A stretch of 32,000 nt of DNA from Oxalobacteraceae bacterium. GTDB taxonomy: Bacteria; Pseudomonadota; Gammaproteobacteria; Burkholderiales; Burkholderiaceae_D. The stretch covers positions 110,738 to 142,737 of the forward strand of contig CANFLV010000009.1 in assembly GCA_947448025.1 (NCBI GenBank). The letters are read 5' to 3'. The position numbers and the translations under genes were made by a program. A model generated the notes under the pieces. The model ran no database searches. It was not told where the DNA came from and saw only the letters and a program-made list of their open reading frames with translations. Positions 10,395 to 32,000 of this stretch are shown in pieces (within the stretch, counting starts at the first letter, position 1; each line of letters starts with the position of its first letter).

Positions 10395-10470
10395 TGGTGC
10401 GGCTGGCTGGAATCGAACCAGCGACCCTTGGCTTCGGAGGCCAATACTCTATCCACTGAGCTACAGCCGC
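10395..10470 (-). tRNA. tRNA-Arg (anticodon CCG), CCA encoded
   Basis: The reverse complement reads GCGGCTGTAGCTCAGTGGATAGAGTATTGGCCTCCGAAGCCAAGGGTCGCTGGTTCGATTCCAGCCAGCCGCACCA. It folds by hand into a cloverleaf with a 7-bp acceptor stem, anticodon loop CTCCGAA, and a T-arm with TTCGATT. Confidence 0.92.
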
Positions 10471-11970: not shown

Positions 11971-13788
11971 ATGTGCGGCATCGTCGGCGCAGTAGCGCAA
12001 CGCAATATCACCCCAATCTTGCTCGAAGGCCTGAAACGGCTCGAATACCGCGGCTATGACTCCTGCGGCGTGGCACTGCATGTCGATGGCCAGCTGCAGC
12101 GTTCGCGCAGCACCTCGCGCGTGGCAGATCTCGAGCAACAGATTGCGCAATCGGGACTGGCCGGCTTCACCGGTATCGCCCATACGCGCTGGGCCACGCA
12201 CGGCGCACCAGCGTCGCACAATGCGCATCCGCATTTTTCGCGCGAGCGCATCGCCCTGGTTCATAACGGCATCATCGAGAACCATGAAGAATTACGCGCC
12301 GAACTGACGGCGCTCGGCTATGTTTTTGAGAGCCAGACCGATACCGAAGTCATCGCCCATCTGGTCGACCACATGTATTCAGGCGACCTGTTCGAGACCG
12401 TGCAGCAGGCCGTCAAACGACTGACCGGCGCGTATGCGATTGCGGTGTTTTCACGCGACGAGCCACACCGCGTCATCGGCGCACGGCAAGGCTCACCGCT
12501 GATCGTCGGCGTCGGTAAAGGCGAGAACTTCCTCGCCTCGGACGCGATGGCGCTGGCCGGCACGACGAACCAGATTATTTATCTCGATGAAGGCGATGTG
12601 GTTGACTTGCAGATGCAGCGCTACTGGATTGTCGACGCGAACGGCAAATCGGTCGAGCGCGAAGTGCGCACCGTACATGCGCATTCGGGTGCGGCTGAAC
12701 TCGGGCCATATAGGCACTACATGCAAAAGGAAATCTTTGAGCAACCGCGCGCCATCGGCGATACGCTTGAGGGCGTCACCGGCATCATGCCGGAGCTGTT
12801 CGGCGACAAGGCCTACGGGATTTTCAAGCAGATTGATTCGGTGCTGATCCTCGCCTGTGGCACCAGCTATTACGCCGGCCTGACGGCGAAATACTGGATT
12901 GAAGCGATCGCCAAAATTCCGGTCAATGTCGAGATCGCCAGCGAATACCGCTACCGCGACAGCGTGCCCAATCCGCAGTCGCTGGTCGTGACGATTTCGC
13001 AAAGCGGCGAGACCGCCGACACGCTCGCCGCGCTCAAGCATGCGCGCAGCCAAGGCATGCTCCACACACTCACCGTTTGTAATGTCGACACCAGCGCGAT
13101 GGTGCGAGAATGCGCGCTGGCCTACATCACGCGCGCCGGCATCGAGGTCGGCGTGGCCTCGACGAAAGCCTTCACGACCCAGCTGGCTGCGCTGTTCCTG
13201 CTGACTCTTTCGCTGGCGCAGGTCAAGGGACGCCTCAGCGACGCCGCAGAAAGCGCTTACCTGAAACAGATGCGCCATTTGCCGCTGGCGATTTCAGCCG
13301 TGCTGGCGCTTGAACCACAGATCATCGCCTGGTCCGAAGATTTCGCAAGGCGTGAAAACGCGCTTTTCCTCGGGCGAGGCCTGCATTATCCGATCGCACT
13401 GGAAGGCGCCTTGAAGCTCAAGGAAATCAGCTACATTCACGCCGAAGCGTATCCGGCAGGCGAACTGAAACACGGTCCGCTAGCACTGGTAACAGACCAA
13501 ATACCAGTGGTGACGATCGCACCGAATGACACCCTGATTGAAAAACTGAAGTCGAACATGCAAGAAGTGCGCGCACGCGGCGGACAGCTGTATGTCTTCG
13601 CCGATGCCGATTCACGCATTACGCCCAGCGAAGGCGTGCATGTGATCCGCCTGCCGGAGCATTATGGCCAGCTCTCGCCTATCCTGCATGTGGTGCCGCT
13701 GCAGCTGCTGGCGTATCACACGGCGCTGGCGCGTGGAACCGATGTTGACAAGCCGCGTAATCTGGCAAAGTCCGTCACAGTGGAGTAG
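11971..13788 (+). CDS. glmS: Glutamine--fructose-6-phosphate aminotransferase (isomerizing)
   Basis: 605 aa. The protein starts with the catalytic MCGIVGAV, has two SIS domains, and ends in the canonical KSVTVE. GAGG SD is present. Confidence 0.97.
13769..13787 (+). repeat. attL core: 19-bp direct repeat within the last glmS codons
   Basis: AGTCCGTCACAGTGGAGTA here versus AGTCCGTCACGGTGGAGTG at 23839-23857 (17/19). Both encode SVTVE plus a stop. Confidence 0.8.
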
Positions 13789-13808
13789 TTCAGCTAGTGA
13801 GTAATTTT
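13788..13808. repeat. Left terminal inverted repeat of the island (P' arm)
   Basis: gttcagctagtgagtaatttt matches the reverse complement of 23817-23837 (gttcagctcgtgagtaatttt) at 20/21 positions. Confidence 0.8.
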
Positions 13809-14102
13809 GACGATATTTCAGCACTTTTGTTGGTCGTTAAACTGAAAACACAGGCTCTTTACATTGGACCCTATACAACTAGTCAGCGACGACTGTTTAA
13901 TAGGGTCTTTTTGTTGCGCGAGCGAGATAAATTAACTTTTGAGGCAATCGCTAAGCTGTTGACGAGGTCAGGTACACGGTCTGCGAAAGGCTGCTTGCTA
14001 GGCGCTGAGCATGTCTTTTCTATCTACAAGAAAGGCAGACTTAGGCAAGAACGACTCACTTTGAAGGTTAAACCAGAGTTAATGGACCTGTGGCTTGAAT
14101 GA
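13797..14102 (+). CDS. Small putative DNA-binding protein at the island's left end (possible regulator or recombination directionality factor)
   Basis: 101 aa with a GTG start. The GGAG of the glmS terminal codons sits about 11 nt upstream. It is a distant paralogue of ORF 23855-24145 (shared ...L.LR....IA......G....G......VFSI.KK....ERL). Confidence 0.5.
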   Translation: MSNFDDISALLLVVKLKTQALYIGPYTTSQRRLFNRVFLLRERDKLTFEAIAKLLTRSGTRSAKGCLLGAEHVFSIYKKGRLRQERLTLKVKPELMDLWLE

Positions 14103-14314
14103 TGTCCTTTAACAGGACATCGTTGGATATCACCGTTTGATGTCTGTTCTATTTGGAATATCCGTGTCGTCACGGGACACTTGCGCTTTGAATACACTCA
14201 GGACCAGCTAGAACCGCCGCTGCGCAGTTTTCGCTATTAAATGCGCACAAAGATGCTGCGCAAAGAAAAACTACTCAAAACGCAATTAAGGTGTCGCAGA
14301 TTGGATGTGCGGTT

Positions 14315-14599
14315 TCAAGTGTCACGACGAAGCTGCTCAGCATCCAGCTTTTGAAATTCAAGATTCGCTCTCTTTTGCATCGTCTCAACACGATCCTTAG
14401 CAACGCGAATGTCATGCTTAGTGGGCTGAGTAATGTTTGATTGCCTTCCGAGCAGTGTCGTTAGCCCGTTAATCATATCGCTTTGTTTAAGCTGCACGGG
14501 TAGCGGGACTGCTGGTACGCGGTGCTTCTTGTTTTGTGGCTTCGCCAGAGTGGTTGTGATGAATTCATGAATGCGCATGAATCTATTTATCTTGCTCAA
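14315..14599 (-). CDS. Hypothetical protein (94 aa), overlapping the upstream wHTH gene by 17 nt
   Basis: ORF only. It overlaps the stop region of 14583-14960, which suggests co-translation. I recognise no motif. Confidence 0.4.
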   Translation of the reverse strand: MSKINRFMRIHEFITTTLAKPQNKKHRVPAVPLPVQLKQSDMINGLTTLLGRQSNITQPTKHDIRVAKDRVETMQKRANLEFQKLDAEQLRRDT

Positions 14600-14960
14600 T
14601 ACATTGCAGATAAGTGTTCAATACAACATTTTTGTATGACTCAAATGCATCGGTGAGTCTCTTTGTAGCCATGATATACCGACAGCGTTTGTCATCAGTG
14701 TCGCAAACAACCTCGCACCAACCGCCTACAATAAACTGCTCCAGTACATTTCTGACGCCACGCTCACTGTATTTCAATGTGCTGAACAGACGCTTAAGTG
14801 TCAAAGGCTTCAAGGTACAGCTACAGTGCGCTATGAGAATAAACAGGTCAAAAGCAACGCGACTTTGACTCAGAGGGAGGTTGCGCTCCTCCCAAAGTCG
14901 TATATCAATTACGCCTTTGGAAAACTTTGAAGTAACAGTTCTGATTTCGCTTGTACCCAT
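14583..14960 (-). CDS. MarR-like winged-helix transcriptional regulator
   Basis: 125 aa. The segment LTLKRLFSTLKYSERGVRNVLEQFIVGGWCEVVCDTDDKRCRYIMATKRL fits the MarR HTH-wing pattern (D-x-R in the wing). Confidence 0.5.
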   Translation of the reverse strand: MGTSEIRTVTSKFSKGVIDIRLWEERNLPLSQSRVAFDLFILIAHCSCTLKPLTLKRLFSTLKYSERGVRNVLEQFIVGGWCEVVCDTDDKRCRYIMATKRLTDAFESYKNVVLNTYLQCIEQDK

Positions 14961-15010
14961 CTGCTTTTAGTAAGTCAGACGAGCGTATTCCCACCCCAAT
15001 AAAATTCCTA

Positions 15011-15202
15011 CTATTTTTGCATGCAATTAATGCCTGCAAAAATTGCAGATATTTTAGCTTGCTTCCGATACCGACATAGAACACATTTAATAGCCAAAAT
15101 TAAAATAGTTACAACACCTCCTATTATTAAAATAAAAATCAACTGTGAGGCGAAAAAATAATACATTATTAGAAATAGAAAAATAAATGGATAACATGAC
15201 AT
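15011..15202 (-). CDS. Tiny two-span hydrophobic membrane protein (63 aa)
   Basis: The ORF consists almost entirely of two hydrophobic stretches. The region is AT-rich, so a chance ORF cannot be excluded. Confidence 0.3.
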   Translation of the reverse strand: MSCYPFIFLFLIMYYFFASQLIFILIIGGVVTILILAIKCVLCRYRKQAKISAIFAGINCMQK

Positions 15203-15256
15203 CGTTAAATGTGATCACCGGATGTCTGCTTTGGCTCCAATTCAAGTGGAATAAAA

Positions 15257-15517
15257 ATGAATGAAAAATCAATTAGAGAAAAGAAAATCAAAGAATGCTT
15301 GCAAGGACTTGAGAACATTCATCAAGTCATTGAATCAACCAAATTAGATAACGAAAAATGGCGTGAAGAGGCAGCGAAATCCTTTGAGCGTCAGCTTTCA
15401 GCGCTTCGTTTATGGCAGTCAGAGAGTAGATTATTAAAAAATTATCAAATTGCATTCATATCATTTGCGGGCGTCTTAGCTGGTGGAGTTTTAGGCGTAA
15501 TTATTAAATATAGTTAG
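15257..15517 (+). CDS. Small coiled-coil protein with C-terminal TM anchor (86 aa)
   Basis: A charged heptad-like N-terminal region is followed by YQIAFISFAGVLAGGVLGVII at the C terminus. Confidence 0.4.
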   Translation: MNEKSIREKKIKECLQGLENIHQVIESTKLDNEKWREEAAKSFERQLSALRLWQSESRLLKNYQIAFISFAGVLAGGVLGVIIKYS

Positions 15518-15543
15518 TAAATTTATTGATTTCAGGATTTTAA

Positions 15544-16146
15544 ATGAAATGCGTCAATTGCAATAATTGGTATATGAAAAATACCGATAAATTTTGCTCT
15601 GAATGTGGAGCCAATCAGAAAATTGAATCAAATAAATTTACAAATTTGGAAATCCAATATAATAAATCTAATTTTCAATCAACTTCAACATCGACATTAA
15701 AAATTTTAAAAATATTAATATTAATTTTGGTGACTGTATTCACATTGTTATTCGCACTTGGCACTATGGTGGATTCAAGAATAAATTCATTTGAAAAGGG
15801 ATCTAATTATAGATGGCATAAAGGTTCATGTTCTATATTCCAAGAAACTAAAGTAAAGTGCCTGAATGAGATGGACTACAAGTACCTGTGCAAACACAGT
15901 GATGGTTTTACCTACTTTGCGCTAATGGAACTAGCCGTAAGAAATCAAGTGTATTCAATAGCGAGAGAAGCATCAAATTTACATAAAGAAATTTTTTGGA
16001 CTGGATCTAACGAGTGCCGCGCTTCAATTACAGCTACTGCAATTATTCGCGGAAATTCATCAGCAGATACAACAACTGGTGTAGTAGAAGAGTTTCATAT
16101 TTCAGAAGACGGTGAAATTTTAGTCGCTAGTTGGTCGGGCATTTAA
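15544..16146 (+). CDS. Zinc-ribbon / single-TM protein with ~125-aa C-terminal domain of unknown function
   Basis: N-terminal CxxC...CxxC (MKCVNCNNWYMKNTDKFCSECGANQ), a TM helix (ILKILILILVTVFTLLFALGTMV), and a Cys-containing C-terminal domain. AGGA SD is present. Confidence 0.6.
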   Translation: MKCVNCNNWYMKNTDKFCSECGANQKIESNKFTNLEIQYNKSNFQSTSTSTLKILKILILILVTVFTLLFALGTMVDSRINSFEKGSNYRWHKGSCSIFQETKVKCLNEMDYKYLCKHSDGFTYFALMELAVRNQVYSIAREASNLHKEIFWTGSNECRASITATAIIRGNSSADTTTGVVEEFHISEDGEILVASWSGI

Positions 16147-16316
16147 TAAATCAACAACTAACCTAATAACAGATAGCTTAATGCTATTAAATTATCCCCA
16201 ATAAATAAATTATAGATGCCAATATAAATTTCTTGCAAATTAATGAAAATTAGATATAAATTTCAAAGTGAGATAATCAATTTGAATTTTCTAAATTAAA
16301 TATATCCCTTTATGCA

Positions 16317-16628
16317 ATGTTGCAATTCAATCTAACTGTCAGTCAGGCAACTAACCACTCTGAAGAAGATGCGGCTAAATACTCAGTCGTTTTAGTGTTT
16401 TTATTTGGTAGAACCGAAATGCCAGATGCTATGCATTCCTATTTTCAAGCTGCGAAACTACTAGATAAAAATGCGACTGAAATAATTGGATTAGTTTCTA
16501 AAAAATCAATAATGAATACCGAAGTCGATGTTATTTCGTTTTGCAATAAGCAAAGATCGGAATACGATTATTTGAACCACATGACAAAAGGCAAACGGAA
16601 TGTATTGAAGTACTTAGACAGTTTTTAA
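16317..16628 (+). CDS. Hypothetical protein (103 aa)
   Basis: ORF only, in an AT-rich region. Confidence 0.3.
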   Translation: MLQFNLTVSQATNHSEEDAAKYSVVLVFLFGRTEMPDAMHSYFQAAKLLDKNATEIIGLVSKKSIMNTEVDVISFCNKQRSEYDYLNHMTKGKRNVLKYLDSF

Positions 16629-16932
16629 AAATAATTAATTTGCCAATGATTAACCATTTTCACATTTCGAAAGTAATCGACCAAAAATATTTTTCGAATA
16701 TTTTTAATTTGCAAAATGACAAAATTCTTACAATTAATTTTAAAAGCATTTTTCTGACACCTCAAGTTCTTTCCTAGTCTTTAAATGATATTTTTCGATC
16801 GATCAGTGAGCGCTTTTACTTATAGTTCAGCCGCGAAAAGCGTTTTAATCTCTACTTTAGTTTTTCAGTTGTAATCCGTCTTAGCAACAACACATTCCCA
16901 ACCTTATAGAGGCGAATGAACATTAGTTTTGC

Positions 16933-17045
16933 CTGATGGATTCCGTCGTCAATGATTTATTTTCTTGCCATAGCCTTGCCATCACGCAACACGATGCGAG
17001 TGCTAGTAATATATGTATTGAATTAAGTAGTTAGCCCTGTATTTT
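16933..17045 (+). repeat. Copy 1 of a 113-nt diverged direct repeat (relic of a duplicated coding segment)
   Basis: An ungapped hand alignment with 17420-17532 gives 77/113 identical positions. One shared reading frame is conserved at the protein level (..AITQ.DA.S.NICIE..). Confidence 0.6.
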
Positions 17046-17180
17046 TTAATCTACTTTAAAAATCAGAGAGCAGAATATTGAAAAGCCATCAGATAACTCT
17101 TAAATCAGCAGTAAGGTTACTGGTAGAATATTTTGTGATTCATTACTAAATACCTCCAAATATAAAATCGAGGATTAAAT

Positions 17181-17423
17181 ATGAAATGTGTTAGTTGCAA
17201 TAATTGGTATATGAAAAATACTGATAAATTCTGTACTGAGTGTGGAGCATCTCAGAATGTATCTCAGAATGCCGCTCAAAATTTTACACAAAATGCCGAA
17301 CCGGTGAATTCAATTTTCAACAGCGAGAAGCCGAAATTTTCAATGGTTAAAATAATATTATACTTATTAACCATATATTTCGCTATTTACATATTTAGGG
17401 CAGTATTCCTCAGTATGTTCTGA
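17181..17423 (+). CDS. Zinc-ribbon / single-TM protein, short paralogue of 15544-16146 (possibly truncated by frameshift)
   Basis: The N-terminal sequence MKCVSCNNWYMKNTDKFCTECGASQ is nearly identical to the paralogue. The first ~75 nt are highly similar, and the AGGA SD is conserved. A TM helix sits at the C terminus. Confidence 0.55.
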   Translation: MKCVSCNNWYMKNTDKFCTECGASQNVSQNAAQNFTQNAEPVNSIFNSEKPKFSMVKIILYLLTIYFAIYIFRAVFLSMF

Positions 17424-17532
17424 TTGACGCCATCGGCGACGAAAGGCATTTTCGCCATTGTCGTGCTATCACGCAAGACGATGCGCACAGTGGCAATATA
17501 TGTATTGAGATTGGTGGTGAGCTCTGTGATTT
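17420..17532 (+). repeat. Copy 2 of the 113-nt diverged direct repeat
   Basis: See 16933-17045. It lies in an open frame (17399-17656) that has no start codon and is -1 relative to the 17181-17423 gene. Confidence 0.6.
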
Positions 17533-17639
17533 TCATGCATGTATTTATCTACGCATGAAGTACGGAACCAGCAATAGCTGGCAGTTGTTCTCTCACAAGA
17601 TAATTGAGCCTCCCTTTACTAGACGCTCGGCATTGTCAA

Positions 17640-18086
17640 TCATTTGGCAAATCTAGCCTTCACCGAATCCGCGGCTTGCTCAATCTGCACATCAAGCGAG
17701 CCATCCAGAACAGCTTCCTGCAAGCGACTTAGAACCGCAAGCAGTTCATCGCCATTCGCGACTTCAACCGCATTCTTCCCTTTCGCCAAGTCAATCACCT
17801 TGTTGCCGTAGAAAATCTGTACAGCAAGCTTCTTAGTATCAACTTGAACAAACCACCATTGCTTGACGCGCTTGTTTATTTCTACCAGTGAAGTCATGCC
17901 AGTAACTTCATTGCGCACATTTCGCGTCCGTTTCACCGTGAACATTTCGTCTTTGCTCATCGCCTGAGCCATTGCAATCTGCACCTTCAATTTTTCATTC
18001 AATTTATTACGCCTGAAAACTACCGGATCAACTGTACTTTGGCGCTTCGCATTGACTAATTTCAGACTTGAAAGAATTGCACTCAT
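17640..18086 (-). CDS. Hypothetical protein (148 aa), divergent from the Rep-like gene
   Basis: A clean ORF with balanced composition (MSAILSSLKLVNAKRQSTVDPVVFRRNKLNEKLKVQIAMA...). I can name no motif. Confidence 0.5.
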   Translation of the reverse strand: MSAILSSLKLVNAKRQSTVDPVVFRRNKLNEKLKVQIAMAQAMSKDEMFTVKRTRNVRNEVTGMTSLVEINKRVKQWWFVQVDTKKLAVQIFYGNKVIDLAKGKNAVEVANGDELLAVLSRLQEAVLDGSLDVQIEQAADSVKARFAK

Positions 18087-18201
18087 TGAAATTTCCTTGT
18101 GTATTGATGTGTGTAATCATTTTCGTTCCGAATCTCCTTGATTCCTAGCCTGGATCATTTGGTTATTTCACGGTATTCATTGGTTTGGCATAAATAAACT
18201 A

Positions 18202-18753
18202 ATGATGATCCCAATAGATAAATTTCAAGAAAAGCACTTCGAAATACTAGATAAATTTCGCTCAAAGAATGAGGAATGGATTTTGCAACATCAACATCTG
18301 ATCACACATTCATTAACATTGACATTTGATTGCCGACATCTACTTCGTACTCTGAACAAATACCAAAGTTCGCAAACTCTTAATCATCCAGATGTAGTTG
18401 AATGGCTTCAAGCAAGCATGAGGTATTTTAAGAATAGGCTTAATAAATCACTGTATGGAAATCGACGCGGGAGAATTTTACTGATACCCGTTATTGAAGG
18501 ACTTGGAATAGATCAAAAGCCACACTACCACTGCCATCTTGGCGTTAGTAAAGATCGATTCGATGCAGTTGAAGCAAAGGTAAAAAGTATTTGGAAGGAA
18601 GTTCCGTTTGGTGGAACTCAAGTCGTAGTCAAACCATATAGAGATCATGGATGGGTTGGCTATTCTACAAAGAACACTTTGTTCGCAAACAGGGAGAGCA
18701 TCGATTGGATGAATATCCTCCTGCCCACATGTTCTTCATCTACTGCTGAGTAA
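18202..18753 (+). CDS. Small HUH-superfamily Rep/relaxase-like protein (putative rolling-circle initiator)
   Basis: Three ordered motifs: SLTLTF (motif I-like), KPHYHCHLGV (HUH motif) and GWVGYSTKN (YxxK catalytic Tyr motif). 183 aa. Confidence 0.5.
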   Translation: MMIPIDKFQEKHFEILDKFRSKNEEWILQHQHLITHSLTLTFDCRHLLRTLNKYQSSQTLNHPDVVEWLQASMRYFKNRLNKSLYGNRRGRILLIPVIEGLGIDQKPHYHCHLGVSKDRFDAVEAKVKSIWKEVPFGGTQVVVKPYRDHGWVGYSTKNTLFANRESIDWMNILLPTCSSSTAE

Positions 18754-19224
18754 TTGCTCCTTTGGATGAGGCGAAAGGGATCAGTTGATTCTTTAATAGC
18801 GGAGCCATGTCAATTTTCTGAAAGATCGCAATCAATGCTGTAAGGCTAGCAACTAGGTCTTTACTGAAGGTGATGTACAAGGCATGGCAAGCAAGAACTC
18901 AACGACAATTAAATATGCGCAGAAACAGGATCAATAATTGGTTGGCTCGCGCAAAATCATCGGGATAGTAATCAAGTGTACAGATATCGATTAGATCCAC
19001 GCATAAGCGATTTTCTTAAGTTAGTGACCTAGGCATTTGCAAACTGGCTTATCTTTTAAATTCAGTCAGCAGCGAAATCAAAGCAAATGTAAATTTCATT
19101 TGATTATTCGCTAACTCATTGAATTCATTAAACATCCAATATTTCACCTAAAGACTTGTCCGACCTAATCAATGGGTTCAGAATAAATACAGATCAATCA
19201 TTTGATATGTAAGGGAAATCTAAA

Positions 19225-19827
19225 ATGGCACAAGCAAAAGTACTGAATGAAAAAGAAGTCCGCAAAGTATTGCTCTATATCGCTGCACGCAAACATGCTG
19301 CCAGAAATCGGGCAATGTTCACGCTGTTGAATTTCACTGGTATGCGGGTCGGTGAGTTGGCAGCACTTCGTTTGTGCGATGTCTTGTCAAAGGACGGCGG
19401 CATTCGTGAAGAAATCTATTTGTCTGTAGATCAGACGAAGGGATCAAAGGGGCGCACAGTTGTTGTGTCGCAAAAAGCGCAGGAAGAAATCAGGAACTAC
19501 CTGCAAGCCCGCTTTAAACTGAAAGACTTACTGGCGGTGACAATGACAGACACAGGTCGTGCTCTGTTCACGACACAGAAAGAGCCGAATCGCGGCTTCA
19601 CTGCGTCAACATTAGCGCAGCACTTTCATTACATGTACAAAGGCGCAGGCATCACTGGCGCAAGCTCACACAGTGGTCGTCGTGGCTTCATCACGAACCT
19701 GGCGAACATGGGCGTATCAGTTCGCGTGTTGATGGAACTCGCTGGTCACAAGTCGCTGGCTGTGACGCAGAAATACATTGATGTAAATCCCAAGATGATG
19801 CGTTCAGCAGTGGAATTGCTCGGATAA
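19225..19827 (+). CDS. Tyrosine site-specific recombinase, catalytic domain only (200 aa)
   Basis: Catalytic signature in order: R in TGMRVGELAAL, K in TKGSKGRTV, HxxR in HSGRRGF, H in AGHKSL, and Y in TQKYIDV. There is no N-terminal SAM-like core-binding domain. AGGGA SD is present. Confidence 0.8.
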   Translation: MAQAKVLNEKEVRKVLLYIAARKHAARNRAMFTLLNFTGMRVGELAALRLCDVLSKDGGIREEIYLSVDQTKGSKGRTVVVSQKAQEEIRNYLQARFKLKDLLAVTMTDTGRALFTTQKEPNRGFTASTLAQHFHYMYKGAGITGASSHSGRRGFITNLANMGVSVRVLMELAGHKSLAVTQKYIDVNPKMMRSAVELLG

Positions 19828-19832
19828 AGAAA

Positions 19833-19852
19833 AAGCCAGCAGTAGCTGGCTT
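19833..19852. terminator. Bidirectional terminator between the convergent recombinase and H-NS-like genes
   Basis: aagccagc / gctggctt stem with loop agta. There is a good T-run on the minus strand (TTTTTCTTT) and a weak one on the plus strand. Confidence 0.6.
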
Positions 19853-19873
19853 GTTCACAAGGAAAATATTCAC

Positions 19874-20164
19874 TTAGATTTCAAACTGAGCGCGATCTTT
19901 ACCTTCCATCCATTTCGGCGTTCTACCGCGCCCTGACCATGTCAAACCAGTTGCTGGATCACGATACTTGGGCATGACCTTGCTTTCAGTGCTGACCTTA
20001 CGAGCGCGCTTAGCGCCGCCAAAAATGTCATCGGCAGTTAGATGATATTCAGCAATGATCGCTTTAATTTTACTGATGGCATCAGAAAGTTCATTCTGGC
20101 GCACTTGATCGATTTGTGCTTCGAGTGCTTCTTTTTGCTTGATGAGTTCTGCGAGCGTGGACAT
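19874..20164 (-). CDS. H-NS-family nucleoid-associated protein (Burkholderiales Bv3F/H-NS-like)
   Basis: 96 aa. It has an N-terminal coiled coil (LIKQKEALEAQIDQVRQNE) and a C-terminal DNA-binding motif, KYRDPATGLTWSGRGRTPKW. GGAG SD is present. Confidence 0.85.
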   Translation of the reverse strand: MSTLAELIKQKEALEAQIDQVRQNELSDAISKIKAIIAEYHLTADDIFGGAKRARKVSTESKVMPKYRDPATGLTWSGRGRTPKWMEGKDRAQFEI

Positions 20165-20203
20165 GTTTTGTTACTCCGTTAATAAATTTTTCTAGCCATT
20201 ATA

Positions 20204-20902
20204 TTACTCTGGAAAGCGTCCTTGGCGTACGGCGTCAATAATTTCGTTTGCTTTACGAAGATATCTACTTACAGCATTGATGGCAGTTGCGCTATCTAAA
20301 ACATTTATCTTATCGAGATCGCTCCGATTTAAGTCCATCGCAAGTGGTGATGGTAGTTTATCGACTTTCCACAAATTATTTTTATATCGCTTCTCTCGTT
20401 CCAAATAGAACTTACGGACTGACTTTAACAACTCACGCGATGTTGGCTTTTGACCATTCGTGATTTCAAGGAGTTTTTTGTTCTGATCGAAAGTATGCAA
20501 GTAAGCACGATATGTTGACGGTCTAATTTCAGCGCCGAGACGAACGCGTAACTGACTCAATTCAATTGGTTGATGACCGATTTCCATCAGAAATTTTCGA
20601 ACTTGTTCACCGATCTGTGTGCTTGTCTGTGATTTTGGCACGCGCAAAAGGTAAGTTACATCATCTGCCTTGCCTTCGTCAATTTGCTCAACCAAGGATG
20701 GAGTTAAGGAGATTACTTTTTTCCCGATTTCTTCCCACCATTTATCGAATTTATAAGTTTCGATATTACCCCACTCCCTATAAAGGTCGATTTTTACTTT
20801 CGACTTATCTTCTGCAATTGCTCTTCGTAAGAATTCGAACCAAAGTCTATAAGCTTCTTTGCTCTGAGCGCGTGGTGCGCGTTGTATTTTTTGGATTGTC
20901 AT
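20204..20902 (-). CDS. Hypothetical protein (232 aa) with Trp/Phe-rich N-terminal motif YRLWFEFLRR
   Basis: A clean ORF, divergent from 21164-21958 across a repeat-containing intergenic region. No SD. The motif is reminiscent of regulators on mobile elements, but I cannot assign a family. Confidence 0.45.
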   Translation of the reverse strand: MTIQKIQRAPRAQSKEAYRLWFEFLRRAIAEDKSKVKIDLYREWGNIETYKFDKWWEEIGKKVISLTPSLVEQIDEGKADDVTYLLRVPKSQTSTQIGEQVRKFLMEIGHQPIELSQLRVRLGAEIRPSTYRAYLHTFDQNKKLLEITNGQKPTSRELLKSVRKFYLEREKRYKNNLWKVDKLPSPLAMDLNRSDLDKINVLDSATAINAVSRYLRKANEIIDAVRQGRFPE

Positions 20903-20953
20903 TTATAAATTAATTAAATGTGAAAAAGTTAATTATTGATCTTCTTAAATCAA

Positions 20954-21013
20954 CGAGTCAATAACTCACTTATGAGATATTTGAGAATTACATTTTTCTA
21001 TATTATGGGTCTA
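20954..21013 (+). promoter_or_regulatory. Copy 1 of a ~60-bp direct repeat in the divergent promoter region
   Basis: cgagtcaataactcacttatgagatatttgagaatta... is repeated exactly 100 bp downstream. The first 37 nt match at 31/37. It contains a TTGAGA -35-like hexamer. Confidence 0.5.
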
Positions 21014-21053
21014 TTGATTGATTAACTCTTGCTTAAAGATTTTAATTTGTTAG

Positions 21054-21113
21054 CGAGTCAATAACTGACTTTTCAAATATTTGAAAAATAGTGTTTTTTG
21101 CATAATAGAGTCT
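21054..21113 (+). promoter_or_regulatory. Copy 2 of the ~60-bp direct repeat in the divergent promoter region
   Basis: cgagtcaataactgacttttcaaatatttgaaaaata... contains TTGAAA, a 16-nt spacer, then TAATAG, a promoter-like arrangement facing 21164-21958. Confidence 0.5.
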
Positions 21114-21163
21114 GAATCAATTAATTATAACTTTAAATACAACCACTTAAATAAGGCACTCAT

Positions 21164-21958
21164 ATGAACAACATCGCTCAAAGTAACATTATTACTCTTC
21201 AAGATAATGAAAAAACTCAACATGAATTTGTAACATTATGCTTAAACACTACAAATTTAAAAATGCAAAAAGATGACTACATATCTTCATTTAATTCGTT
21301 CGCAGCAAAAGCCGCTCAAACCACACTTGAAATGTGTCGTGTTGTCCAAGAAGCGAAAGTTGATTTAGACAAAAATAATTTTGAAAGCTTTTGTCAGGCA
21401 ATCGGTCACAGAAGTAACGATAGCACAATTCGAAAATATCTCGCTATCGGCGCAAGGTATTCTGAACTTCATGCAGTTGCTGATCGCTTACCTAATTCAT
21501 GGACTAGCATTTATTTAATTACAATGATTCCTCCTGAAAAATTATTGACTATGATAGACGATGTGAATTCATTTAAAAATATGACTGCACAAAAGATTAA
21601 GCAATTAATATCAACCGATAATGCGTCGTCAGAAAAGACCGTCAATAATTCATTGCTTGAAAATGCAGCAGTGTCAATTTATTTCGAAAAATCGCCGTCA
21701 ATTATTGAATGGAATACTTTAAAGATGCAATTGAAGGCAATTTCAGGATTCGACTCGTTAAAAATACGCATCGAATTTTCAAATAAATTCGAAAAAATTC
21801 ATGAGCATTCAAAAAATAATAATCGTGATGCTGCGAAGCGAACTCGTGAAATAAAAGCAGAGACGAAAAAAAATGTCGATGAAAAAAATTATGTCTACAA
21901 TCCAGCCTTTGACTATGGTGGTGCATATGATTTTGATCTAGGTGAATTCATTTCTTAA
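21164..21958 (+). CDS. Hypothetical protein (264 aa), possibly DUF3102-like DNA-binding protein
   Basis: The segment AAQTTLEMCRVVQEAKVDLDKNNFESFCQAIGHRSNDSTIRKYLAIGARY resembles the plasmid/phage DUF3102 pattern as I recall it. The C-terminal region is Lys-rich. AAGG SD is present. Confidence 0.45.
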   Translation: MNNIAQSNIITLQDNEKTQHEFVTLCLNTTNLKMQKDDYISSFNSFAAKAAQTTLEMCRVVQEAKVDLDKNNFESFCQAIGHRSNDSTIRKYLAIGARYSELHAVADRLPNSWTSIYLITMIPPEKLLTMIDDVNSFKNMTAQKIKQLISTDNASSEKTVNNSLLENAAVSIYFEKSPSIIEWNTLKMQLKAISGFDSLKIRIEFSNKFEKIHEHSKNNNRDAAKRTREIKAETKKNVDEKNYVYNPAFDYGGAYDFDLGEFIS

Positions 21959-21983
21959 AAAAGGCAGCTTCGGCTGCTTTTTT
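21957..21983 (+). terminator. Rho-independent terminator
   Basis: aaaaaaggcagc ttcg gctgctttttt hairpin immediately after the stop codon. Confidence 0.8.
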
Positions 21984-22133
21984 ATGTCCATTTTCTGTTC
22001 CATTTAGAACTTCTCTTTCCCGACGAATTTAAATAAAAATTCATTCAAATTTTACTTCTCATCGGATAGATATTTTTGAACAAAGGCGCTATGCTTTGTT
22101 ACAACTATTCATTATCAAATTTGGAATTATTCC

Positions 22134-23801
22134 GTGGTCAACACATTTCCCGTCAAGACTACCCTTCACATCTATACCCGCGTCTCCAGCGTGGCACAGG
22201 CTGAGCAAGGTACCTCACTTGAGTCTCAGCGCGACCTCGGAATCAAGAAGGCAAATGATCTTGGATTTGAATTCAAGGTCTGGAACGAAGGTGGTCATAG
22301 CTCGCATCATGAAGACATTGCCGACCGTCCAGAGCTGAATTCACTGTATGTGGCGATGCAGGCGGGTCAAGTAAAGCATGTGTGGGTCTATGACCCTTCT
22401 CGTATTTCACGAAATGACCAAGTTGCCTCTGCATTCAGGTATGCATGCAGCAAGCATGGTGTCACGCTCTATACAAAGGACGGAGTTTTTGACCTTTCCA
22501 ATCCAAACGACAAGTTTTTGAAGCAATTGCTGGACGCTGTTGCTGAATTTGATAATGTCACACGAGCAGAGAGGACGCGCCTCGGAAAACTAAACCGTGT
22601 TCGTTCCGGTAGTTGGCATGGCGGACAGGCACCTTTTGGCTATAAGTTAGAAGACCGAAAGTTAGTTGTCGTTGAAGAAGAAGCAAAGTGGGTTAAACGC
22701 ATCTTTCAAGAATTGGTCAAAGGCAGTGCGGCAACTCACATTAAACAAATCCTTGATTCCAATGGTGTCAGTCCGCGCCGGAAGAAAGGATTATGGACGC
22801 TCGGATCAATCAATGCGCTGCTGACGAATACGCACTACTCCGGACATTACCTCTATACCGACAAGAAGTCCGAGCAAACGATTGAAGTTCAATGTCCAAG
22901 CATCGTTGATCAGACGACATGGAATGCGGCTCAATACAAACGCTCACGCGAAGTGATCAGACAGTCACAGAAGAACGCCACGGAAAAGAATTTTTACCTT
23001 CTTCGGGACTTGATGTTTTGCGAACATTGCGGTCGCGCTATCAGTGGTCGGATGAACAAGTCTCGCGCAGAATCTAGTTACTACTGCCCGAACAAAGAGC
23101 GTGCATGGGCAAAGAATGGCGGATCAGAGACGCCGTGGAGGCGTGGCACAGGTTGCGGATTTGATCGCGCCATGAACATTCCGCAGACAGACAAGTTGGT
23201 CTGGGAATTGGTCACATCGCTTCATTCAAAGTCCAGCATCCTGAAAGAAGAAGTCAAACACCGATTGCTCAACCAGAATGGCGTGAAAATTCGTACTGAT
23301 GCTGAAATCAGGACAATTCAAGCCAAGCTGCGAAAGTTGCAGAAGAATTACAAGCTCATCAGCGAAACACTCGGCAATCTTGAGGCAAACAAGTTGATCG
23401 GCAAGATCAATGATGTCAGTTACGAGACCACTGTGCAGCGAATTCGGGAAGAACTAGGCAGCATTGAAACCGAACTTGCCAACGCAAGGCTTGAATTGGC
23501 GGGAACGGCGGAATCACGGAAGTGGGTGAACTGGTTGAAGGCGTTTGGCGAAGAAGTAGAGATGCTGGACGCGTTGACCGATGGAGAGAAAAAGGAGTAC
23601 ATCGGTGGCTTGGTAAAGCGGATTGATGTGCGTTACAGCAACGACAACCGTGAACACATACTCACTCTGACGATGCAGTTACCCATCGTCAATGACGGTA
23701 TCAAAAAGCTACGGTCTGGGCAAGAAGGTCGGGAATACGAAGTGACGCCCGGAACAGAAACCATTACCGTGGCATCCAAAAAAAAAGACCGGCGCGGCTA
23801 G
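22134..23801 (+). CDS. Large serine recombinase (integrase-type)
   Basis: 555 aa with a GTG start. It has an N-terminal resolvase catalytic domain (LHIYTRVSSVAQAEQGTSLESQ, VWVYDPSRISRN) and a recombinase domain (WHGGQAPFGYKL). A zinc-ribbon (CEHCGRAISG...YYCPN) and a long coiled coil follow. Confidence 0.92.
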   Translation: MVNTFPVKTTLHIYTRVSSVAQAEQGTSLESQRDLGIKKANDLGFEFKVWNEGGHSSHHEDIADRPELNSLYVAMQAGQVKHVWVYDPSRISRNDQVASAFRYACSKHGVTLYTKDGVFDLSNPNDKFLKQLLDAVAEFDNVTRAERTRLGKLNRVRSGSWHGGQAPFGYKLEDRKLVVVEEEAKWVKRIFQELVKGSAATHIKQILDSNGVSPRRKKGLWTLGSINALLTNTHYSGHYLYTDKKSEQTIEVQCPSIVDQTTWNAAQYKRSREVIRQSQKNATEKNFYLLRDLMFCEHCGRAISGRMNKSRAESSYYCPNKERAWAKNGGSETPWRRGTGCGFDRAMNIPQTDKLVWELVTSLHSKSSILKEEVKHRLLNQNGVKIRTDAEIRTIQAKLRKLQKNYKLISETLGNLEANKLIGKINDVSYETTVQRIREELGSIETELANARLELAGTAESRKWVNWLKAFGEEVEMLDALTDGEKKEYIGGLVKRIDVRYSNDNREHILTLTMQLPIVNDGIKKLRSGQEGREYEVTPGTETITVASKKKDRRG

Positions 23802-23816
23802 ACACTAACGCCCCAA

Positions 23817-23837
23817 AAAATTACTCACGAGCTGAAC
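23817..23837. repeat. Right terminal inverted repeat of the island (P arm)
   Basis: aaaattactcacgagctgaac; its reverse complement matches 13788-13808 at 20/21. Confidence 0.8.
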
Positions 23838-23838
23838 C

Positions 23839-23857
23839 AGTCCGTCACGGTGGAGTG
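23839..23857 (+). repeat. attR core: second copy of the glmS-terminal 19-mer
   Basis: AGTCCGTCACGGTGGAGTG, 17/19 identical to 13769-13787. Confidence 0.8.
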
Positions 23858-24145
23858 ATCCCGGAAGGACCTCTTCCCCAGAGGTCCGCTGAACCACCTC
23901 TCACATCTCTCATCATTAGCAGCGGACCAGTCACTCTCGACATTCGTCCGCTGAGTCCTTACCAGCAAGAGCTGATCGACACGATCCTGAAGCTAAGGGC
24001 TGCTCATTGGTCGGACCGTCAGATCGCAAACCACTTCAATCTTTTCGGCTGGATGACGCCGAGAGGACATCCCTTCATTCCCCAAAGTGTTTTCTCGATC
24101 CGGAAGAAGTATGCGAAGCGGTTAGAGAGACTTGGCGGGAAATGA
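23855..24145 (+). CDS. Paralogue of the island left-end small protein (relic of a second, truncated element)
   Basis: 96 aa with a GTG start inside the attR core. The segment LSPYQQELIDTILKLRAAHWSDRQIANHFNLFGWMTPRGHPFIPQSVFSIRKKYAKRLERL aligns with 13797-14102. It occupies the same position relative to the core repeat. Confidence 0.45.
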   Translation: MIPEGPLPQRSAEPPLTSLIISSGPVTLDIRPLSPYQQELIDTILKLRAAHWSDRQIANHFNLFGWMTPRGHPFIPQSVFSIRKKYAKRLERLGGK

Positions 24146-24544
24146 TGGGAGAGTCGAGTCTACTCCGGCGCCCCCCTGTCAGAACGAAGATAACTTAAGT
24201 GTTATTTGATGTTTTATATAAAAGATCGGGACGTTATCCCACGAGGTTCGGTACACCCTCGTCACCTACCGCCTTCAGTTTCTTCACCTTTGGACGAGGA
24301 TCTTCAATGCGAAGTCCTGTCCGTTTGATCCGTGAAATCGATTTGATCACCTCACCCATCGGCATCTTGTGAATGGTCTGACCAAATTCAGATGAGAAAG
24401 GCGCTTGCTGCAATTCGGTAAGTTTCGTTTGGATTCATGTCTGATAGGGTATCAGTCGCTATGCTGCGCGGGGTGCATGCTGAAGTAAGTTTGGCGAACG
24501 ATGCCAGCCGGCCAATCACCCGCTGGCATCCATTGCACGGTCCC

Positions 24545-27190: not shown

Positions 27191-27727
27191 ATGACCGCCT
27201 CCGCTTTGATCGCCGACAAGTCGGCATCTTCCCTACGCAACAATTCTGCCCGGCTGGATCCGCTTTCCAGCAAGGCCACCGGGCACGATTCGCCGGTGCT
27301 GCAGCGCGCCGAGGAGAAAGCCAGGGCCGGCAATCTGCCATTCGCCGGCTCGCTCAATCCGCGCGACGCATGGGGACTGCATCTGGCTGGCGACGCACTG
27401 ATCGTCGATGTTCGGACGGCGGAAGAACGCAAATTTGTCGGCTATATTCCCGGCACCGCGCATGTGGCCTGGATGACCGGCATCTCGCTCACGCGCAATC
27501 CGCGCTTTGTCAAGGAACTGGAGTCGCGTGTCGGCCGTGATGCCAATATCCTGCTGCTATGCCGCAGCGGAAAACGTTCTGCCTTGGCGGCCGAGGCTGC
27601 CGCCAAGGCTGGCTTCCAGCATGTATTCAATATCCTTGAAGGCTTCGAAGGCGATCTCGACAACCAGCAGCGCCGCGGCGAATTCAACGGCTGGCGTCAT
27701 ACCGGCCTGCCGTGGGTGCAAGACTGA
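27191..27727 (+). CDS. Rhodanese-domain sulfurtransferase with ~55-aa low-complexity N-terminal extension
   Basis: 178 aa with active-site loop CRSGKRS. The rhodanese fold markers LIVDVRTAEE and GW...GLPW are present. AGGA SD lies 8 nt upstream. Confidence 0.85.
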   Translation: MTASALIADKSASSLRNNSARLDPLSSKATGHDSPVLQRAEEKARAGNLPFAGSLNPRDAWGLHLAGDALIVDVRTAEERKFVGYIPGTAHVAWMTGISLTRNPRFVKELESRVGRDANILLLCRSGKRSALAAEAAAKAGFQHVFNILEGFEGDLDNQQRRGEFNGWRHTGLPWVQD

Positions 27728-28692: not shown

Positions 28693-28924
28693 ACGCCGGA
28701 ATTGCCATCGTTGCCAGTTTCGGGCAGGCAGTGCGCCATTTTCGTGAACAGAAACTTGGTCGCAGGAACGATTGGCCGCAACCGCAGACCTGAACCGTTC
28801 GTATCTCGGTCAGGTGGAACGCGGACAGGCCCTGCCATCGCTGGCGACTGCCAAAAAACTGGCGGCAGCGCTAGATGTCTCGCTCGCCGAGCTGGTCGAC
28901 TTATGGGAATGCAGCCAACCCTAG
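28689..28924 (+). pseudogene. XRE-family HTH regulator interrupted by a frameshift
   Basis: Frame A (ATG 28689, ATGA overlap with the cysE stop) gives MNAGIAIVASFGQAVRHFREQKL and then stops at 28793. The adjacent frame continues WSQERLAATADLNRSYLGQVERGQALPSLATAKKLAAALDVSLAELV to TAG 28924. The total span is 236 nt, one short of a multiple of 3. Confidence 0.6.
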
Positions 28925-28996
28925 CGCAATCATACCGGATTGTTTTACGCATTTTCGTCATTCACTTTCACCCACCCAAAAACAAGGAGCCTTTCC

Positions 28997-31779: not shown

Positions 31780-32000
31780 TGTGGTGGTCAACTAATTTCG
31801 GACACAGCGATAGGTCTTTTTTCTGCCATGTTCCGTTCAAAGACGGCAGGCGGCAGATTGCCCAATACTGAATTGAGCCGTTCACTGTTGTAGAAGCCAA
31901 CGATGTACGACACGATGTCGGCCTTGGCTTCGGCTTGATTGGCATAGGTGCGCTGCCATACGCGCTCCATCTTGAGGTTAAGGAAGAAACGTTCAGCCAC
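31780..32000 (-). mobile_element. IS3-family insertion sequence, end fragment (transposase OrfB C-terminus, continues beyond the window)
   Basis: The minus-strand frame ..AERFFLNLKMERVWQRTYANQAEAKADIVSYIVGFYNSERLNSVLGNLPPAVFE.. matches the conserved end of the IS3 rve-domain transposase. The stop at 31788 lies inside a candidate terminal repeat, TGTGGTGGTCAAC (starting at 31780); that IS boundary is inferred. Confidence 0.75.

Follow-up and report, generated by a model that had tools for sequence, protein, structure and literature searches.

An integrative island probably placed in the last codons of glmS by a large serine recombinase

The window, the whole 32,000-nucleotide stretch of DNA analyzed here, contains a glmS gene whose 3' end runs into an AT-rich element, which in turn ends shortly after a gene for a large serine recombinase (LSR). 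From glmS to the DNA beyond the right element end, the features are as follows (coordinates, strand, description).

11971-13788, +, glmS, 605 aa, with Pfam SIS and GATase domains
13777-13778, +, crossover dinucleotide AC at attL, the first two bases of the Thr603 codon
13779-13808, +, P' half-site of attP at the left element end; its outer 21 nt (13788-13808) are a terminal inverted repeat
13797-14102, +, o101, first gene of the element, 101 aa, helix-turn-helix-like, conserved family
14315-14960, -, two ORFs of 94 and 125 aa with no assigned function, conserved in close relatives only
15257-17423, +, the most AT-rich, variable cargo, with ORFs of 86, 200, 103 and 80 aa
17640-18086, -, DUF6641 protein (PF20346, E 4.7e-10)
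18202-18753, +, candidate HUH/rolling-circle Rep-like protein, 183 aa (weak PF23343 match)
19225-19827, +, tyrosine recombinase, 200 aa, catalytic domain only (PF00589, E 3.4e-27)
19874-20164, -, H-NS-like protein, 96 aa (PF00816, E 2.2e-14)
20204-21958, two ORFs with no assigned function, 232 aa (-) and 264 aa (+)
22134-23801, +, LSR, 555 aa, with Resolvase, Recombinase and Zn_ribbon_recom domains
23817-23846, +, P half-site of attP at the right element end; its outer 21 nt (23817-23837) are a terminal inverted repeat
23847-23848, +, crossover dinucleotide AC at attR
23849-24378, +, B' side: the original glmS tail (G GTG GAG TGA), then a ~0.5-kb remnant of an older island

The element spans 13779-23848 (10,070 bp) and contains no recognizable transfer genes. 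As an earlier note on this DNA had reported, its ~10 kb are AT-rich relative to both flanks, with a G+C content of 0.398 in 13789-23838 against 0.567 on the left and 0.596 on the right, and a 19-mer at the end of glmS (13769-13787) recurs at 23839-23857. The two copies, the only ones in the window, differ at two positions, and a match of this kind arises in 0 of 100 shuffles. Directly inside these direct repeats lie 21-nt terminal inverted repeats, at 13788-13808 (+) and 23817-23837 (-), which the earlier note had overlooked; they contain a single mismatch and likewise occur in 0 of 100 shuffles. The junctions hold no Rfam family and no tRNA, a promoter scan gives no excess over background, and scans for promoters and terminators find nothing between glmS and o101. 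Two assembled contigs from ERR10482443 break near attR, one ending at 23828 (L013) and the other starting at 23973 (L022); at the contig level this break is no evidence of heterogeneity.

The target gene remains complete, and glmS homologues of 605 aa are 90–97% identical to it over 100% coverage. Its last 10 nt, comprising the third base of the Thr603 codon, Val, Glu and TAG, come from the element: the P' arm has N-GTG-GAG-TAG, so that glmS regains Thr-Val-Glu-stop and stays intact. The P' arm thereby repairs the end of glmS, which reads ...KSVTVE-TAG through the left repeat, and the crossover falls in the third-last codon (13777-13778, Thr603); both regeneration of the C-terminus by the element and a crossover inside the coding end had been proposed from the initial reading. 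An SVTVE-stop tail is retained in glmS of the sampled Beta-, Gamma- and Alphaproteobacteria. The glmS tail is by itself partly dyad-symmetric, with A..TC at positions -8 to -5 matched by GA.T at +5 to +8. Because all four half-sites share this symmetry, the sequences around the two junctions appear as a 19-bp direct repeat, which is not a duplication since the element half-sites simply resemble those of glmS. The crossover itself involves just 2 bp, the AC found at 13777-13778 and again at 23847-23848, not 19 bp.

The attP site of an LSR is an imperfect palindrome of ~50 bp, and attP and attB need share only a central non-palindromic dinucleotide; a tyrosine recombinase requires a longer identical overlap (6–8 bp), and insertion by a transposase leaves a target duplication. 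When the two ends of the element are joined in silico, they form a 62-bp palindrome centered exactly on the AC of the Thr603 codon. The reconstructed attP palindrome is centered on AC in 11 of 11 two-ended loci, with 19–28 of 40 positions matching, versus 5–20 of 40 for attB, which is not palindromic. The arms have different sequences in different subfamilies, but within any one element they match and covary. Furthermore, AC is all that attL and attR have in common at their centers in two relatives (L024 and L028), and its occurrence as the sole common sequence in several relatives is the signature of a 2-bp serine-recombinase crossover. A non-palindromic dinucleotide at the center of a palindromic attP fits what is expected of LSR attachment sites, and the site architecture thus supports serine recombination.

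The recombinase gene was recognized in the earlier note as a 555-aa LSR gene ending 38 nt before the right repeat, and its product matches the Resolvase catalytic domain (PF00239, E 1.3e-19), the Recombinase domain (PF07508, E 1.5e-15) and the Zn_ribbon_recom zinc ribbon (PF13408, E 1.7e-4), the last at 22.3 bits, just under the gathering threshold of 25.3; precomputed PF13408 matches are present in many LSR homologues. The residues Y14, R16, V17 and S18 of the YxRVS motif, which includes the nucleophilic serine, are invariant in 14 family members, as are Cys296, 299, 318 and 341, located in and after the zinc-ribbon region. Judged by its sequence, the protein is a complete and genuine LSR. 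It matches serine integrases of solved structure (E 1e-9 to 4e-4), and its best PHROG match is an integrase family; the nearest phage and plasmid LSRs are no more than 27% identical to it. NCBIfam models for CcrA, CcrB and CcrC score 75.5, 71.9 and 52.3 bits, respectively, against cut-offs of 700–900, and the LSR is on these scores not an orthologue of any of the three.

Comparisons with related loci tie this recombinase family to glmS. Among 89 related LSR genes from Beta-, Gamma- and Alphaproteobacteria (29–83% identity), 85 have a glmS tail of the form AC-NGTNGAR-stop within ~150 nt of the LSR 3' end; the linkage holds over ~110 related loci, and 1.17 Mb of related loci contain 122 glmS-tail cores where 1.7 are expected by chance. 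Four relatives (L076, L078, L079 and L088) have no glmS-like core. Members of the family abound in freshwater Betaproteobacteria (Limnohabitans, Polaromonas, Polynucleobacter, Methylophilaceae) and also occur in the other two classes. Element sizes range down to 3.1 kb, and in the minimal relative (L035) o101, a small resolvase and the LSR are the only genes found among those searched for; a small resolvase also lies beside the LSR in some subfamilies. Three relatives are located in IMG/VR contigs.

Two relatives provide views of the predicted recombination partners. The earlier note had proposed comparison with an unoccupied site, and a sister species (L136) is indeed without the 10-kb element, precisely at the junction predicted: the window with the element excised in silico aligns to it without gaps (272 of 302 positions identical), reading from the glmS core into 23859 onward. 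A metagenome contig (L054), from a relative 83% identical, is circularly permuted with respect to an integrated relative (L055), and the switch between parent sequences at its P-AC-P' junction falls exactly at AC. This contig has no exact end overlap, its tail being a diverged variant of its head, and it could derive from a tandem duplication instead of a free circle.

The sister species also clarifies the right flank. Directly after its glmS lies an AT-rich island whose start is 89% identical to the segment to the right of the window's element; this DNA is not native host sequence but a leftover from a second, earlier island of the same type. The first gene of the remnant, o96 (23855-24145), encodes an o101 homologue (29% identity, E 6e-5). 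Its homology to the first element gene (13797-14102) was overlooked in the initial reading. The 0.5-kb remnant beyond the right repeat thus makes the locus a tandem array, and a true tandem array of two distinct elements is present in another relative (L059).

The cargo is varied. Two paralogous zinc-ribbon proteins with a hydrophobic segment are encoded in 15257-17423, and their 87-nt 5' regions are 84% identical. The DUF6641 gene is a backbone gene common to related elements, present in 23 related loci and with one weak plasmid match, and the 264-aa protein recurs in distant subfamilies. Searches of the cargo ORFs with NCBIfam and PHROGs return nothing except a PHROG family of unknown function that matches DUF6641, and PADLOC matches no defense system. 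The mini tyrosine recombinase and the H-NS-like silencer named in the earlier note are both clear from their Pfam domains, the latter from an H-NS C-terminal domain; the tyrosine recombinase is Xer-like by NCBIfam, at scores below the cut-offs, and is a backbone gene of the closest clade (28 related loci). The Rep-like HUH assignment stands in part: the motifs SLTLTF, HYHCH and YSTK are visible in the 183-aa protein, the Pfam match (PF23343, E 3.6e-4) is weak and below cut-off, and no relative is found among plasmids or solved structures.

Taken together, the LSR domains, the attachment-site architecture and the linkage of LSR to glmS across ~110 loci support the earlier proposal of LSR-mediated integration, and 13779-23848 is very likely an integrative island placed in the end of glmS by the LSR. 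Integration by the 200-aa tyrosine recombinase (19225-19827), with the 19-bp repeat as core site, would suit the block of identity, the good PF00589 domain and the conservation of the gene in the closest clade; however, the gene is not detected in most glmS-located subfamilies, including the 3.1-kb relative, the protein has no N-terminal DNA-binding domain, the 2 bp common to the L024 and L028 junction centers are too few for a 6–8-bp overlap, and the attachment site always adjoins the LSR gene. This reading is highly improbable. Somewhat less so, and still improbable, is a prophage remnant or phage satellite with the LSR as its phage integrase: LSRs are common in that role, as the best PHROG match reflects, and the IMG/VR location of three relatives fits, but genes for structural proteins, packaging or lysis are absent from the Pfam and PHROGs results, phage and plasmid LSRs are distant even at their closest, and elements can be as small as 3.1 kb. 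A Tn7-like or other transposon at attTn7, with the repeats as its target-site duplication, has in its favor that glmS is the classic Tn7 target and that terminal inverted repeats are present. Its gene content refutes it: the absence of tnsABCD-like genes noted earlier is borne out by the 15 ORFs between the repeats, which carry no Tns-like Pfam domain, and the element as a whole has no TnsA, B, C, D, TniQ or DDE domain and no ends of Tn7 type. Moreover, the insertion lies within the coding sequence and not ~25 bp downstream, and the repeats differ at two positions; they are not duplications, because those of relatives differ at most wobble positions. The chance that such a transposon explains the locus is negligible.

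Whether the window copy is still active is a separate matter. It may be mobile at present, and the main alternative is that the LSR inserted it in the past and that it is now fixed and immobile, through lost regulation or selection against excision, which is possible although we consider it unlikely. In its favor, all ~20 contigs of the window species, from several samples and MAGs, carry the island in the same place at 99.97–100% identity, and neither an attB nor an attP form of the element is found: these contigs show no circular junction or empty site of the exact element, when the exact proteins for glmS, the LSR, the TonB-dependent receptor and the AsnC regulator are looked up, only same-strain contigs with the island in place come back, and the predicted attB pattern is absent from metagenome_contigs, where the only copy found of the exact LSR (P0001) is without a JGI source. 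On the other hand, the samples come from a single clonal population in related lakes, the full-length LSR keeps every family-invariant residue, the arms differ at just 1 of 21 positions, and the 83%-identical relative exhibits a P-AC-P' junction.

In the integration mechanism that we propose, a circular form would carry a ~62-bp palindromic attP between the LSR gene and o101, in the order LSR, attP, o101. The LSR would bind attP together with attB, the latter made up of the last ~20 nt of glmS coding sequence and ~20 nt downstream, and would catalyze the reaction; by analogy with LSR biology, both sites would be cut at the central AC of the Thr603 codon and the half-sites rotated and religated. 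An attL left by a different island could also act as attB, since hosts differ in the outer part of B', and this would explain the tandem arrays, including the second-island remnant in the window. Use of attL-type sites is not what one expects of canonical LSRs, and tandem accretion would depend on a heterologous P' arm being read as a B' arm. From their domains, the H-NS-like protein would silence AT-rich DNA, and maintenance or mobilization of the excised circle may fall to the Rep-like HUH protein and the small tyrosine recombinase.

The o101 protein may have a part in this control. For this family, 221 homologues and 417 clusters at 50% identity are found, and members match the N-terminal half of the Pfam Recombinase domain (PF07508). 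An AF2 model contains a confident three-helix core, for which Foldseek against the PDB finds nothing significant (best E 0.87); profile–profile comparison of o101 with the element's own LSR is negative. The inner 9 nt of the P' half-site resemble the glmS tail and the o101 start codon lies within the outer 21 nt, so positioned that in the integrated form of the window's subfamily o101 begins 9 nt behind the glmS stop codon, and in the circular form it follows the LSR gene directly, on the other side of attP. It is a rather speculative suggestion that the o101 family comprises a new type of accessory or directionality factor for serine integrases, made of stand-alone homologues of the LSR helix-turn-helix half, with the corollary that the conserved glmS half-site is essentially all that the LSR requires. 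If so, o101 and the integrase would bind one and the same inner half-site motif; with the arrangement split on integration, expression of o101 would signal which of the two forms, circular or integrated, the element is in, and would determine the direction in which recombination runs; and attB would be near-universal across diverse bacteria with a conserved glmS tail.

No description of a serine-recombinase island at glmS turned up in a literature search, and this widespread LSR family seems undescribed. In one study of Methylophilaceae, an island next to glmS was interpreted as a 'tycheposon' of the tyrosine-recombinase kind (PMC10872708). The family appears to be an unrecognized driver of flexible islands beside glmS.

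Several known systems share features with these islands. Like the integrases of phiC31, Bxb1, A118, TP901-1 and SPbeta (SprA/YokA), the LSR has a three-domain architecture and an attP that is an imperfect palindrome of ~50–60 bp with a non-palindromic central dinucleotide. It differs from them in sequence, with no more than 27% identity, and in its non-phage cargo; in this family the core is inverted relative to the int gene between subfamilies, the 'convergent' subfamily (L032-L037) having the flipped orientation, and the known directionality factors gp3, gp47 and SprB are unrelated to o101. Tn7 and Tn7-like elements (TnsD/TniQ-directed, including CASTs) use attTn7 downstream of glmS; Tn7 employs a DDE transposase with TnsABC+D, and its insertions lie ~25 bp beyond the stop codon, flanked by a 5-bp target duplication. 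Both kinds of element use the conserved glmS 3' end as a safe harbor without inactivating the gene, but here a conservative 2-bp LSR crossover takes place inside the Thr603 codon, with no tns genes and no target duplication. Two unrelated chemistries, a Tn7-type DDE transposase and a serine recombinase, have thus converged on the same few dozen bp, and the serine recombinase goes beyond Tn7 in cutting within the coding sequence and then repairing it. Alongside mini-Tn7, an integrase made of one protein whose natural attB lies in a conserved gene tail would offer a second route to single-copy chromosomal insertion in Gram-negative bacteria.

The closest parallel in organization is with the SCC elements (SCCmec) that, in staphylococci, the LSRs CcrA/CcrB or CcrC insert into the 3' end of rlmH (orfX); the SCC features compared here are established general knowledge. 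In both, insertion by an LSR falls within the last codons of a conserved housekeeping gene, whose reading frame the element restores, short direct repeats carry the integration site with imperfect terminal inverted repeats inside them, self-transfer genes are absent, and elements accumulate in tandem at one site (here in L059 and in the window remnant). The likeness is one of organization, not of membership, and the islands at glmS are a real, SCC-like family of probably mobile elements with a new target. They differ from SCC in their proteobacterial hosts, in targeting glmS and not rlmH/orfX, in having one LSR (with a small resolvase in some subfamilies) and not a CcrA/CcrB pair, and in a conserved, RD-like small protein encoded across attP, which may be a new type of control factor.

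The AT-rich element at 13779–23848 lies inside the end of glmS and is bounded by two nested sets of repeats. The 19-mer at the end of glmS, AGTCCGTCACAGTGGAGTA, does recur at the right end as the earlier note had claimed, with two mismatches; no such match arises in 100 dinucleotide-preserving shuffles, and the repeat finder lists it as D14. Directly inside these direct repeats are 21-nt terminal inverted repeats that the note had missed, with one mismatch (0/100 shuffles), reaching 27 nt at 89% complementarity in the repeat finder (I2). The other features that the note reported also stand. G+C content is 0.398 between the repeats versus 0.567 and 0.596 in the flanks, the recombinase reading frame that ends 38 nt before the right repeat carries Resolvase, Recombinase and zinc-ribbon domains, and glmS continues across the left repeat to a regenerated C-terminus, ...KSVTVE-TAG.

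11971–13788: glmS, 605 aa
13769–13787 and 23839–23857: 19-nt direct repeats
13788–13808 and 23817–23837: 21-nt terminal inverted repeats
13797–14102: o101, the first gene of the element, 101 aa
22134–23801: large serine recombinase (LSR), 555 aa
23855–24145: o96, a small open reading frame just past the right repeat

A tRNA-Arg(CCG) gene, 1.5 kb upstream of glmS (10395–10470, minus strand), is unconnected with the island junctions.

Joining the right end of the element to its left end in silico yields a 62-bp site composed of a 21-nt arm, 20 central nucleotides and the arm inverted, with its dyad symmetry centred on the AC of an ACN threonine codon, the third-last codon of glmS (13777–13778 at the left junction, attL, and 23847–23848 at the right junction, attR). 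For the window and ten two-ended relatives, attP was rebuilt from the element half-sites P (from attR) and P' (from attL), and attB from the host half-sites B (from attL) and B' (from attR). P and the reverse complement of P' are in register around AC in all 11 loci, matching at 19–28 of 40 positions, whereas B and B' match at only 5–20 of 40. The arm sequences vary by subfamily (TTACTCACnAGCTGAAC, TTACTCACTTGCAT, TTACCCCCTACCT and ACCCCCGTTGGAAAC, with TTGAACACTCTTCCGAAC in a SAR116 alphaproteobacterium), yet both arms of any one element match each other, a covariation such as would be expected for two half-sites of one recombinase dimer. The half-site consensus has A at -8 and TC at -6/-5 common to B, P, P' and B', and the glmS tail, AAG TCN GTN AC N GTN GAG TAR, has the same partial dyad symmetry; judged from these sequences, the inner half-sites of the element mimic the glmS tail.

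It is characteristic of large serine recombinases that a long palindromic attP encloses a shared 2-bp, non-palindromic core. In two related loci, L024 and L028, the bases flanking AC differ between attL and attR (e.g., gtg-AC-c versus gtc-AC-g), leaving AC alone as the central identity, and the 19-bp direct repeat is therefore rejected as a duplication. A 2-bp core is likewise incompatible with the 6–8-bp overlap of tyrosine-recombinase integration and with the target duplication of a transposon insertion. With crossover at AC, the element provides the third base of Thr603, followed by Val, Glu and the TAG stop, and the original glmS tail (G GTG GAG TGA) stays behind at attR.

The LSR contains the invariant catalytic motif Y14-R16-V17-S18 and has conserved cysteines both within the zinc-ribbon region and past it. 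It matches the solved serine integrases SPbeta YokA/SprA, phiC31, A118 and TP901-1 at E-values of 1e-9 to 4e-4, and against the curated XisF and Ccr models its scores stay far under the cut-offs. A search of 5.8 billion proteins returned 747 relatives, mostly ~555 aa; phage and plasmid records contain no relative above 27% identity. Scans of one genome per species, metagenomes and IMG/VR supplied 112 related loci (1.17 Mb in total), in which 122 'SVTVE' cores are found versus 1.7 expected by chance. The sequence AC-NGTNGAR-stop lies at most ~150 nt from the LSR 3' end in 85 of the 89 genes with enough downstream sequence, and glmS itself is found in 39 loci, i.e., wherever the locus sequence extends far enough. 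This link between LSR and glmS tail persists down to 29% LSR identity and spans Betaproteobacteria (Limnohabitans, Polaromonas, Polynucleobacter, Methylophilaceae and Rhodocyclaceae), Gammaproteobacteria (Marinomonas and Lysobacter) and Alphaproteobacteria (SAR116). Two arrangements occur: that of the window, with o101 following glmS and the LSR last, all in the same direction, and one in which the LSR is convergent on glmS and ends 35 nt from AC (L032–L037, L086, L090, L094 and others). The circular order LSR, attP, o101 is the same in both, and the asymmetric core alone is flipped relative to the genes. In four loci with LSRs 54–59% identical (L076, L078, L079 and L088), no glmS-like AC-Val-Glu-stop core follows the LSR gene, and these may use a different or retargeted att site; in at least the first three, the LSR runs straight into an o101-like reading frame.

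The smallest relative, at L035 1559–4666, is a 3.1-kb element in glmS in which only an o101 homologue, a small resolvase and the LSR are detected, likely the core mobility module. In many subfamilies, the LSR is directly preceded by a second serine recombinase, a small one that is 27–32% identical to the LSR catalytic domain over ~165–200 aligned residues (L029, L030, L032–L037, L040, L045–L047 and many metagenome loci); the element in the window lacks one.

Comparisons among loci provide evidence of movement. L054, a SPAdes contig of 10,032 bp that lacks glmS, matches in circularly permuted order the integrated element of L055, which comes from a sister sample: L054 1–4067 corresponds to L055 5943–10009, and L054 4053–9978 to L055 72–5997, at 99.4–99.9% identity. 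Its junction reads P-AC-P', and the arms are palindromic at 20 of 26 positions. AC is preceded by the attR base and followed by the attL base, which maps the exchange to the dinucleotide. An exact overlap of the contig ends was looked for and not found, which leaves the contig compatible with either a free circle or a tandem duplicate. Further P-AC-P' junctions are present in L059/L060, L064, L089, L104, L113 and L132; those in L108, L118 and L126 are weaker candidates. In L059, the sequence past the junction matches the left end of the first element at only 90% identity before diverging; two different elements lie there in a true tandem array. Separately, L049 (minus strand) contains three glmS-tail cores, at 6281, 7622 and 16563, and a fragmented LSR; its arm types are ordered P'(A)...P(B)-core-P'(B)...P(A), which is not an outcome of simple tandem insertion and may stem from fusion of two attP sites (attP x attP) or from an attP inside the element.

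The island is present in every sampled genome of the species in the window, and this copy is therefore only putatively mobile. The host, an Oxalobacteraceae bacterium, has a glmS 90–92% identical to its Undibacterium and Noviherbaspirillum counterparts. The most similar other glmS (97% aa), in L136, is followed directly by a homologue of window 23841–24378 (89% nt; o96 91% aa), and the 10-kb element is absent. The empty site that the earlier note predicted for a close relative is seen here: the window minus 13779–23848 aligns to L136 gap-free across the junction (272/302), versus only 196/315 for the unexcised window.

The DNA following glmS in L136 is itself AT-rich (0.41 versus 0.58) and begins with the o96 homologue, in the same position as o101 in the window. 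The earlier note had missed that o96 is homologous to o101 (29% identical, E 6e-5). The window keeps only ~0.5 kb of this type of DNA, ahead of a TonB-dependent receptor gene (24545–26923). In the window, glmS is therefore followed by an intact 10.07-kb island, then by what is left of an older one, and then by host DNA. In the next-closest loci, L137 and L138 (glmS 96%), all that is left after glmS is a decayed o101-like reading frame, which suggests that older islands have been lost by deletion, leaving scars. This frame (L137 11819–11960, and L138) reads ...PLYQRQLLNAILLR..., and no island is present there. In the half-site consensus, hosts do not share a conserved outer B' arm, and the attL of a heterologous island could therefore plausibly serve as attB, which would account for the tandem arrays. 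Just past the original glmS stop is a perfect 8-bp hairpin, GGACCTCT-TCCCC-AGAGGTCC (23867–23887), kept in L136 and with its 5' arm also in L044; it may be a P'-type arm of the older island or a glmS terminator. GCTGAACCA, directly after it, echoes the P arm.

Farther right, the window contains a family 2A encapsulin operon (27191–31700; Pfam labels from gene tables).

27191–27727: rhodanese
27712–28692: serine O-acetyltransferase-like hexapeptide protein
28940–29923: SrpI-like encapsulin shell
29856–31700: cysteine desulfurase with a long disordered N-terminal extension

Just past it, at the right edge (31788–32000 and beyond; L005 19655–21668), an IS3-type transposase (rve and rve_2 fragments) is split by an IS110-family transposase.

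Backbone genes common to the relatives are o101, DUF6641, a 200-aa tyrosine recombinase and the LSR; the other genes are variable. Among the cargo previously proposed, the H-NS-like protein is well supported by domain search, whereas Pfam support for the Rep-like HUH protein is weak, although the motifs SLTLTF, HYHCH and YSTK are visible in its sequence. Defence, conjugation and phage structural genes were not detected in the cargo. Two cargo genes (200 and 80 aa) share a zinc-ribbon N-terminus, MKC(V)xCNNWYMKNTDKFCxECGA, ahead of a hydrophobic segment, and their 87-nt 5' regions (15534–15620 and 17171–17257) are 84% identical (D1 of the repeat finder).

The start codon of o101 lies within the P' arm, 9 nt past the glmS stop. 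Its close homologues number 221, nearly all of 101 aa, and the family comprises 417 clusters at 50% identity. An AF2 model has a confident three-helix core with no significant match in the PDB; its weak matches repeatedly include chains of the Bxb1 and SPbeta integrases. Several family members match Pfam Recombinase in its N-terminal half, and two exceed the cut-off (P0421, 8e-19; P0505, 2.7e-5), and o96 matches the same region (E 0.023); profile comparison of o101 with the LSR of the element is negative. Given the reality of the family, the start in the P' arm, the Recombinase matches and the presence in the minimal element, o101 is regarded as belonging to the recombination module, probably as a DNA-binding relative of the helix-turn-helix in the recombinase domain.

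Full-text literature searches turned up no account of serine-recombinase islands at glmS; in a Methylophilaceae paper, an island next to glmS is taken to be a tyrosine-recombinase tycheposon (PMC10872708). The glmS-specific LSR islands form a large family that is apparently undescribed so far. Tn7-like elements have the target gene glmS in common with the island and nothing else. The island is not a member of the staphylococcal SCC elements, since it matches neither the Ccr models nor the rlmH target. SCC elements are the closest in organization, sharing with the island an LSR, insertion into the last codons of a housekeeping gene with the frame restored, direct and inverted repeats, and tandem arrays.
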